Below are positions 8,701-55,536 of a DNA stretch of 64,000 nt, piece by piece. Numbering within the stretch: position 1 is the first letter of the stretch; every line of letters starts with the position of its first letter. Origin of the DNA: Deltaproteobacteria bacterium (GTDB lineage Bacteria; Myxococcota_A; UBA9160; UBA6930); assembly GCA_016875395.1 (NCBI GenBank), contig VGRF01000002.1:207815-271814 (forward strand). Direction: 5' to 3'. The translations under genes were made by a program, and so were the position numbers. The notes under the pieces are model-generated. The model saw nothing but the letters and a program-made list of their open reading frames with translations. It had not been told where the DNA came from and did no database searches.

Positions 8701-8761
8701 GCGCCGCGAGAGTTAGCAGGACGCGAGACACGACAGGACGCGAGCGGGCGAAAGCGGACAG

Positions 8762-8796
8762 ATCGCGGAGCCAGCGTCAGACGCAAAATCCGCGAT
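8762..8796 (-). repeat. hairpin element with GCGTCAGACGC loop palindrome (family B, copy 3)
   Basis: Stem ATCGCGGA (8762-8769) pairs with TCCGCGAT (8789-8796). The loop holds CCAGCGTCAGACGC. Same architecture as the elements at 36281-36364 and 55420-55454. Lies 60-100 nt upstream of the GT2 start. Confidence 0.5.
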
Positions 8797-8821
8797 TCCG
8801 CCGCGCGACGACGTCCCGCCC

Positions 8822-19985: not shown

Positions 19986-20184
19986 CGCGCACAGGGGACG
20001 TACGTGCACAAAACCGCGCACCAGGGACGTACGTGCACAGAACCGCGCACTAGGGACGTACGTGCACACTCTCACGCGTAAGACGGTGCACGTACGTCCC
20101 AGGTGCGCGCAGATGTGCAGGTACGTCCCCAGTGCGCGCCACCGGGCGCGTTCGAGCGAGATGCACGTACGTCCCCGTTGCACG
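19986..20184. repeat. array of six copies of a 24-bp unit CGCGCACNNGGGACGTACGTGCAC, three direct then three inverted
   Basis: Direct copies at 19986-20009, 20015-20038 and 20044-20067 (29-bp period). Inverted copies at 20086-20109, 20115-20138 and 20162-20184. Fills the 227-bp spacer between the GT2 stop (20196) and the fpg start (19968). Confidence 0.75.
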
Positions 20185-36280: not shown

Positions 36281-36364
36281 CGAATCGAGAAGCGAGCGTC
36301 AGACGCGTTCTCCTCGATTTCGGAGAATCGAGGGCCAGGCGTCTGACGCTGGATTGGCGATTCG
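36281..36364. repeat. 84-nt imperfect palindrome containing two inverted copies of the GCGTCWGACGC hairpin element (family B, copies 1a and 1b)
   Basis: Palindromes at 36296-36306 and 36339-36349. AATCGAG/CTCGATT stems at 36283-36289, 36313-36319 and 36326-36334. Lies between the sucA stop and the nfi start. Confidence 0.55.
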
Positions 36365-36407
36365 CCCCGCGGGTGCGTCGCGCGCCCACGCGCGGCACCG
36401 TCGTGTG

Positions 36408-55355: not shown

Positions 55356-55419
55356 ATCGGCCTCCGAAAAAGAGGGCGCATCTTACCGGCAGGAATGGGG
55401 AATCCGAGAAGCCCGCGAA

Positions 55420-55454
55420 ATCGAGGGACCGGCGCCTGACGCTGGGCCCTCGAT
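55420..55454 (+). repeat. hairpin element with GCGCCTGACGC loop (family B, copy 2)
   Basis: Stem ATCGAGGG (55420-55427) pairs with CCCTCGAT (55447-55454). Loop contains CTGACGCTGG. 27 of 30 nt match 36326-36352. Lies about 85 nt upstream of the 55537 ATG. Confidence 0.55.
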
Positions 55455-55536
55455 CTGCGCGTTTGCGTCCGCCCGCGTGCGAAACCGTTCGCGCGGGGGC
55501 GCGTTCTACCTCGTGCACGCCCTGAGGAGTCACGTC

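Follow-up and report, generated by a model that had tools for sequence, protein, structure and literature searches.

In other bacteria, REPs stabilise upstream mRNA. The closest described relatives of the element considered here are the REP/REPIN-RAYT systems of Pseudomonas and Enterobacteria (PMC3116915, PMC3337134, PMC5581495, PMC3479197), with which it shares an imperfect palindrome of ~40 bp that is present in tens of copies and in spacers only, the occurrence as singlets as well as doublets, the inverted ones among the latter folding as a single long hairpin, and the division into lineage-specific families, several distinct ones of which are found per genome. As in those systems, there are low-copy Y1/HUH transposase genes that are flanked by their own repeat. 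The GTAG- and CGTC-tagged REPs (Di Nocera et al., 2013; PMC3733652) are, as far as the available text of that paper goes, likewise similar in size range, in the stem-loop, in the head-to-head and tail-to-tail dimers and in the 20-100 units that make up a family, and CGTC-tagged REPs are also reported there without a dedicated transposase. Species lists aside, the available text of the same paper makes no mention of Myxococc, Anaeromyxobacter, Sorangium or Deltaproteobacteria, and a limited literature look-up returned no description of REP/RAYT-type systems in Myxococcota.

The element was analysed in a 4.51-Mb draft genome (96 contigs, 96% complete, 70% G+C), and the window referred to below is the whole stretch of 64,000 nucleotides that served as the starting material (C2:207815-271814). 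We consider it highly probable that the element is a REP family, namely a non-autonomous DNA repeat that forms part of a genus-wide REP superfamily tied to Y1 (HUH) transposases of the RAYT kind.

Results

Copies in the window

A preliminary description of the window had proposed a hairpin-like element at three loci together with an inverted partial copy, and all four stretches are real and present where it had placed them. The features are as follows, with positions counted from the first letter of the window:

36281-36321, minus strand: REP copy with the centre GCGTCAGACGC on the plus strand, left half of the sucA-nfi inverted doublet (nhmmer C2:244095-244135, E = 2.2e-8)
36324-36364, plus strand: REP copy, sequence AGAATCGAGGGCCAGGCGTCTGACGCTGGATTGGCGATTCG, right half of the sucA-nfi doublet (nhmmer E = 7.7e-9)
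36281-36364, no strand: inverted REP doublet (REPIN-like), two abutting copies that fill the sucA-nfi spacer
55417-55456, plus strand: REP copy, GAAATCGAGGGACCGGCGCCTGACGCTGGGCCCTCGATCT, with the apex variant GCGCCTGACGC (one mismatch; nhmmer E = 4.6e-7)
8761-8799, minus strand: REP copy, reverse-strand sequence GGAATCGCGGATTTTGCGTCTGACGCTGGCTCCGCGATC (nhmmer E = 1.1e-9)
8722-8760, minus strand: GC-rich 3' extension TGTCCGCTTTCGCCCGCTCGCGTCC... that follows the 8761-8799 copy

The hairpins predicted for these copies on single-stranded DNA range from -8 to -16 kcal/mol, and three of the four are more stable than all of their 200 shuffles (z = -2.7 to -5.3). The copy at 55417-55456, the arms of which are fully complementary, is predicted to fold with -16.4 kcal/mol (z = -5.3) and the copy at 8761-8799 with -11.8 kcal/mol (z = -4.3), while the one at 36281-36321 on its own reaches -8.1 kcal/mol (z = -0.96) and is not better than all 200 shuffles. 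For 36324-36364 the predicted value is -9.3 kcal/mol, with AATCG and CGATT as the only paired parts; its right arm TTGGCGATT is not complementary to the left arm ATCGAGGG (pairing pattern ..||.|.|) and takes the place of the CC-N-CGAT arm that had been ascribed to all three full copies. Because of this non-complementary arm, the earlier claim that both stem differences are compensated is carried by two copies, 55417 and 8761, and does not extend to the third. The sucA-nfi spacer is indeed an 84-nt imperfect palindrome, as had been described, since the doublet as a whole is predicted to fold into one long single-stranded DNA hairpin (-30.6 kcal/mol, z = -7.3).

The copy at 55417-55456 resides in a divergent spacer between an M1 aminopeptidase gene and a small secreted-protein gene, and the copy at 8761-8799 has the stop of a PQQ-dependent dehydrogenase (8822) on one side and the start of a GT2 glycosyltransferase (8700) on the other. 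Measured from the palindrome centres, the next starts are 64 nt (36408, nfi), 100 nt (55537, secreted protein) and 79 nt (8700, GT2) downstream, which agrees with the ~60-100 nt given in the preliminary description. A T-run for intrinsic termination is missing at the window copies, and an Rfam scan of the whole 64-kb window yielded no family at gathering score. For CTGACGCTGG, the window contains exactly three occurrences compared to 0.28 expected, a count that was reached by one in 100 shuffles, whereas the 11-mer loop palindrome with one mismatch allowed is found 5 times vs 10.3 expected, i.e. without enrichment. The significance in the window thus stems from the full unit, to which the bare loop palindrome contributes no enrichment.

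Copy number, unit and placement in the genome

With a profile from 33 exact seeds and one nhmmer iteration, 51 non-overlapping loci were detected in the genome, 42 of which have E<1e-4 and are distributed over ~31 spacers, so that the three loci of the window are a small sample of a genome-wide family of ~42 copies. The exact pattern ATCG-N8-GCGTCWGACGC is present in 38 copies, with 0 matches of the reversed-pattern controls. The unit measures 39-41 bp and has the layout 6+8+11+8+6, (G)GAATCG-N8-GCGTCTGACGC-N8-CGATT(C), with the apex GCGTC-W-GACGC and dyad-symmetric invariant blocks ~16 bp apart. In the alignment of the 38 copies, the invariance of ATCG, the centre and CGAT is built in, as these parts were fixed by the collecting pattern; the 42 nhmmer copies depart from them only rarely. 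Near-invariant are also the A that precedes ATCG (36/38) and the T that follows CGAT (33/38), and the inner 8-nt arms are only semi-conserved. Orientation can be set by the central W: when T is central, 35/38 copies have [A/C]GG as the 5' arm, and the 3' arm is mixed, comprising complementary CCT/CCG types as well as the non-complementary GTTGGCG, CTAGCG and others. Altogether, the inner arms are non-complementary in ~40% of copies. Eleven spacers hold two copies each, five in inverted and six in direct arrangement, at a spacing of either 42-44 nt or 54-75 nt.

Within the 12-nt flanks on either side, no conserved unpaired tetranucleotide (GTAG/CGTC) could be found beyond the (G)GAATCG/CGATT(C) foot. 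The flank composition likewise gives no sign of a target-site duplication, and filled and empty sites are, with ~80% identity, too diverged for exact boundaries.

For the placement relative to genes, gene calls were made with a codon-usage log-odds model trained on the long ORFs of the genome. Not a single full-length copy lies inside a codon-usage-supported ORF, though non-coding DNA makes up no more than 12.4% of the genome. The 28 classifiable spacers comprise 13 co-directional, 11 divergent and 4 convergent ones, which does not differ from the background of spacers >=50 bp (1056 co-directional, 454 divergent and 263 convergent; chi-square test, p = 0.24 on spacer numbers and p = 0.49 on spacer lengths), and the copies in co-directional spacers show no preferred strand, with 8 sense and 13 antisense (p = 0.38). 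The sense orientation ahead of a start codon that had been described for the window copies is hence not a property of the family, and their distance of 60-100 nt from the downstream starts of nfi, the GT2 gene and the secreted-protein gene reflects where insertions are tolerated and not a conserved regulatory placement.

Three further patterns were considered and discarded. An apparent avoidance of convergent spacers, obtained with a crude GC3-filter gene caller that took the first start after the element, is an artefact, as at least four convergent cases exist (C1:20802, C1:240031, C3:73859 and C23:56147, from the codon-usage caller and reading of the flanks). A CTGACGC-TGG subfamily that always faces a downstream start was dismissed since C42:2285 and C3:73859 face the 3' ends of genes. 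ECF promoters have a spacing longer than ~11 nt, and a resemblance to an ECF-sigma-like promoter (GGAAT ... CGTC) was dismissed by eye, its spacing of ~11 nt being too short.

Lineage restriction and orthologous sites

The preliminary description had suggested a profile scan of the genome and its relatives; the former added many more copies, as described above, and in the latter the strict pattern is absent, with 0 matches among 30 relatives, 8 of which are congeners (reversed-pattern control 0 throughout). It is equally absent from the GTDB representatives, one genome each of 185,579 species, in which a looser variable-gap pattern gives single scattered matches in unrelated phyla, such as one conserved Flavobacterium locus. 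Twenty metagenome contigs with the pattern belong to the same population, and most are 99.98-100% identical to the genome, four being at 94-99.6%.

At all three loci of the window, orthologous sites in congeners are without the element. From the sucA stop to the nfi start there are ~21 nt in G002 (locus L014), where the element is absent, vs 145 nt here. Between the PQQ-dehydrogenase and GT2 genes, G002 and G005 have a spacer that is ~75 nt shorter, in which the element and its GC-rich tail are absent and the start-proximal CCTGCTAACTCT block is kept. In the divergent spacer at 55.4 kb, G007, G004 and G005 have kept the flanking GCGCATCTTACCGGCA and GCGAAACCG...GTTCTAC, with unrelated sequence between them, which in G004 and G005 contains a GGGGTCAGACCCC palindrome. 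The kept blocks are found at 55371-55386 and 55484-55510 of the window, GCGCATCTTACCGGCA and GCGAAACCG...GCGTTCTAC, and are candidate promoter/operator parts that the REP insertion left intact. Copy number also differs between strains: contigs ~95% identical to this genome (L043, L060) have one unit where it has two (C62:159-241), a polymorphism that could be due to recombination between adjacent units.

Covariation

Within the genome, 38 ungapped copies were scored against the full hairpin with partners shuffled 500 times, and 79.1% of the cells are paired vs 77.4% after shuffling, the observed value being reached by 13/500 shuffles. The A/C position after ATCG, to which the preliminary description had pointed, co-varies in part (C-G 13, A-U 9, unpaired 16; Fisher p = 0.013), the left A being partnered by G in 13 copies and by T in 9. 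When 16 copies from here were combined with 10 from G001 and G002 in an ungapped alignment of the same 41 columns, 86.0% of the cells are paired vs 74.8% shuffled, a value that none of 500 shuffles reached, with 72 two-sided changed cells vs 27 expected; this shuffle comparison overstates independence, as few ancestral changes were inherited by many copies. At apex pair 17-25, 15 rows from this genome have C-G and the 10 rows from G001 and G002 have G-C, and a hybrid copy (C19:26544) reads GGGTC...GACGC. The proposed selection on the fold is thus borne out across the species, and the excess within the genome is weak. Such two-sided, pair-keeping changes are characteristic of a hairpin on which propagation depends, and a dyad symmetry that is compensated across species fits a hairpin-dependent transposition substrate rather than a regulatory RNA.

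A genus-wide superfamily and RAYT-like genes

The apex GGGGTCWGACCCC is found in 33-127 copies in each of 8 congeners, in 9 copies here and in 0-2 outside the genus. In G002 it is carried by no fewer than three types of arm, CAGCGAAAGAAC, AGCGAKACCGAAA and GAGAATCG-N8/9 (GAGAATCG...CGATTCTC), the last of which has the foot GAATCG/CGATTC and the 6+8+11+8+6 layout of the family studied here. The form GAATCG-AAATYYCG-GGGTCWGACCC-CGRRATTT-CGATTC has ~48 copies in G001 and ~11 in G002. Conversely, the apex GCGTCWGACGC is seen on other arms at C25:34911-34975 and C39:16363-16410 (GACCCGAACGC.. and ..CGTAAG..), and these few cases imply that the apex is not strictly tied to GAATCG arms.

PF01797 (Y1 transposase) genes number 1-14 per congener. 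In G001, a RAYT-like gene on contig C2 (L129) is located between GGAATCGAAATCCCG-GGGTCTGACCC-CGGGATTTCGATTC and GGAATCGAAATTCCG-GGGTCTGACCC-CGAAATTTCGATTC, both GAATCG-armed; its reading frame is interrupted. With other arm types, apex-bearing hairpins are found on both sides of RAYT-like genes at G003:C207, G007:C208, G005:C371 and G002:C553, and on the assembled side at G002:C256 and G003:C29. The encoded proteins of ~260-290 aa match PF01797 as well as NCBIfam NF047646 (REP-associated tyrosine transposase), the latter with 29-53 bits, i.e. below the 80-bit equivalog cut-off, and show an HUH-like NH[VAI]H motif, a QNRY/QDRY tyrosine motif and a C-terminal helix-turn-helix-like tail.

In the present genome, tblastn with the congener proteins detected three RAYT-like genes (on C6, C25 and C30) and the PF01797 search one, from which it follows that the HMM search under-reports divergent RAYT-like genes:

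C6:88525-89331, strand not given: RAYT-like gene bracketed by three direct and three inverted GGGACGTACGTGCA copies (71 half-sites in the genome)
C30:6120-6947, strand not given: RAYT-like gene with the flanks GGGGACGTTCCGCAAG..AAGTAAAG...CTTTACTT..CTTGCGGAACGTCCCC and the repeat TTGCGGAACGTCCC (66 half-sites), missed by PF01797 at E<=0.001
C25:61638-62408, strand not given: RAYT-like gene with GACATTTCGGCCCGGCCGAAATGTC in both flanks and the repeat TTCGGCCSGGCCGAA (28 half-sites), missed by PF01797 at E<=0.001

Each of them has a different repeat, and none in this 96-contig, 96%-complete assembly is flanked by the family studied here. Since the GGGACGTACGTGCA copies bracket the gene at C6:88525-89331, the GGGACGTACGTGCA family is the cognate REP of this RAYT-like gene. 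The window harbours a cluster of this different REP family as well (19986-20184, C2:227800-227998), with a unit of ~24-29 bp, the core GGGACGTACGTGCA and matches at 19995, 20024 and 20053 on the plus and at 20087 and 20162 on the minus strand. On C6, a small palindrome GAATCGCGCGAGCGCGATAC located ~55 nt ahead of the start of the RAYT-like gene (L011:1385-1410) has ATCGCG/CGCGAT words as in C-type arms and no apex; that it shares words with the arms of the family studied here may be a coincidence in a genome of 70% G+C.

Accessory sequences

A GC-rich extension follows 6-8 of 11 TGG copies and is absent from the orthologous spacers of G002 and G005 at the GT2 locus. In CTGACGC-TGG copies, this tail has the form (T)GTCCGCTnnCGyCCGCTCGCG, in the window at 8722-8760 (minus), 36365-36400 (plus) and 55457-55480 (plus) and outside it at C3:143700-143756, C11:9490-9549, C12:18000-18060 and C42:2326-2350, and tails of like form are also located behind REPs of other families (C1:186530, C3:11127 and C7:121669). 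The word GTCCGCTCGCG from the 3' extension was rejected as a separate family, as most of its 60 occurrences are chance matches in coding DNA and a handful come after REPs. A second recurrent 3' neighbour, TCTCGCAACTTC..(C)GCAACTC, was observed at C3:28215-28248, C39:10387-10419, C39:2282-2317, C5:69943-69975, C23:56110-56146 and C1:213627-213660, and in some cases connects a pair of direct copies at a spacing of 74-75 nt. Words similar to CGCAACT also serve as arms in the GGGTCWGACCC copies at C3:43224-43298.

Discussion

The element is an intergenic repeat of ~42 copies that is restricted to one lineage, is missing from orthologous sites of sister species and varies in number between strains, and a homologous family brackets a RAYT-like gene in G001. 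By analogy with REP/RAYT and IS200/IS605 systems (PMC3116915, PMC3479197, PMC5581495), we infer that the hairpin would form on single-stranded DNA, that a RAYT would bind and cut it, and that it would then be copied into other spacers, often beside an existing copy, which would give rise to direct doublets and to inverted ones, of which the 84-nt sucA-nfi palindrome is an example. In the lineage of this genome, a master copy presumably underwent a symmetric apex change from GGGTC/GACCC to GCGTC/GACGC that kept the hairpin, and was then amplified to the present copy number. In this assembly, the family is probably an orphan, which is either mobilised in trans or immobile and drifting; the poorly complementary arms would fit a drifting orphan family. 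The same arms also count against the assignment as a REP, given that ~40% of non-complementary inner arms are unusual for an active hairpin substrate, as do the missing flanking RAYT gene, the interrupted frame of the bracketed gene in G001 and the lack of an unpaired GTAG/CGTC tag.

One could further speculate that the REP system of the genus is modular in an as yet undescribed way, in that one invariant apex, GGGTC-W-GACCC, is common to all subfamilies and the arms are private to each of several RAYT paralogues. The studied family would then represent a natural specificity switch, in which the apex was flipped symmetrically, the cognate RAYT was lost and ~42 copies were kept. We regard this extension as rather improbable. 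If it were true, the enzyme would recognise apex and arms with separate parts, possibly the arms with its C-terminal helix-turn-helix tail, or else a host factor might recognise the apex, and it would be conceivable that a host protein with affinity for the new apex has taken over the orphan family.

Other explanations do without transposition by a RAYT. The element could be the operator of a regulon, with the palindromic apex and the GAATCG/CGATTC half-sites bound in double-stranded DNA by a dimeric protein. The dyad symmetry of the invariant blocks at a distance of ~16 bp would suit such a protein, as would the positions of the window copies 64-100 nt upstream of starts and the share of divergent, promoter-rich spacers (11/28 vs 26% expected). 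However, sister species that retain the neighbour genes and other blocks of the spacer have no copy of the element in the orthologous promoters, at least four copies lie in convergent spacers where no start codon adjoins them, orientation is random and the test of region types gave p = 0.24. Since, moreover, the neighbour genes have unrelated functions, strains differ in copy number and a homologous family brackets a transposase gene, we consider an operator very unlikely.

Just as little probability can be given to a MITE of a DDE-type insertion sequence, for which GAATCG.../...CGATTC would be the terminal inverted repeats and the transposase would be unrelated to RAYTs. Such an origin would account for the terminal inverted symmetry, the intergenic scatter and the lineage-restricted distribution, and it is in line with the absence of a cognate RAYT from this genome, but with 39-41 bp the unit is below the usual MITE sizes, the flanks show no target-site duplication, and it is a Y1 transposase gene that is bracketed by the homologous family in G001 and, likewise, by other arm types. 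Marginally less probable still is a structured cis-regulatory or small RNA, i.e. a 5'-leader or 3'-end hairpin that controls translation, stability or termination, because the predicted hairpins of three of the four window copies, the compensated changes across species and a plausible secondary effect on upstream mRNA as known from REPs elsewhere (such roles are listed in the available text of PMC3733652) are set against the absence of an Rfam match and of a T-run in the window, the occurrence in both orientations to transcription and also in divergent spacers where it may be untranscribed, the weak covariation within the genome and the absence of the element at orthologous loci.

The preliminary reading as a folded RNA, a cruciform or a site for a dimeric protein is thus only partly supported, and what emerged genome-wide is essentially the outcome that it had named beforehand as speaking against itself, namely additional copies that show neither covariation nor positional bias, or an ordinary REP family in random orientation. 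For annotation, this means that the hairpins should be masked as repeats, and that no operator, riboswitch-like leader or terminator should be assigned on their account to nfi, the GT2 operon or the secreted-protein gene.

As a REP family, the element nevertheless departs from the known systems in several ways. Compared to REP/REPIN-RAYT, it has no flanking RAYT gene, it conserves the hairpin apex and the foot of the stem instead of an unpaired 5' tag, and its direct doublets are as common as the inverted ones, while in its genus one apex is common to all arm subfamilies and the RAYT-like proteins stay at 29-53 bits against a cut-off of 80 in the NCBIfam RAYT model. Unlike in the GTAG- and CGTC-tagged REPs, as far as they are characterised in the available text of PMC3733652, the CGTC is part of the paired apex (G-CGTC-W-GACG-C), an unpaired tag at the end is lacking, and the total stem of foot, inner arms and apex is longer and interrupted. 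The BIMEs of E. coli are similar in that copies are joined with recurrent short motifs, here the GC-rich GTCCGCT... tail or TCGCAACTT...CGCAACT, and form two-unit clusters, although the accessory motifs themselves are unrelated to those of E. coli. To these systems, the present study adds one of the REP/RAYT type from an uncultured high-GC lineage of the Myxococcota, in which several RAYT paralogues per genome have their own arms and yet a common apex, and in which a transposase is missing for one family, the apex of which has switched symmetrically. As such, the genus offers a natural series for finding out which parts of a REP hairpin are read by a RAYT and for how long orphan REPs persist.
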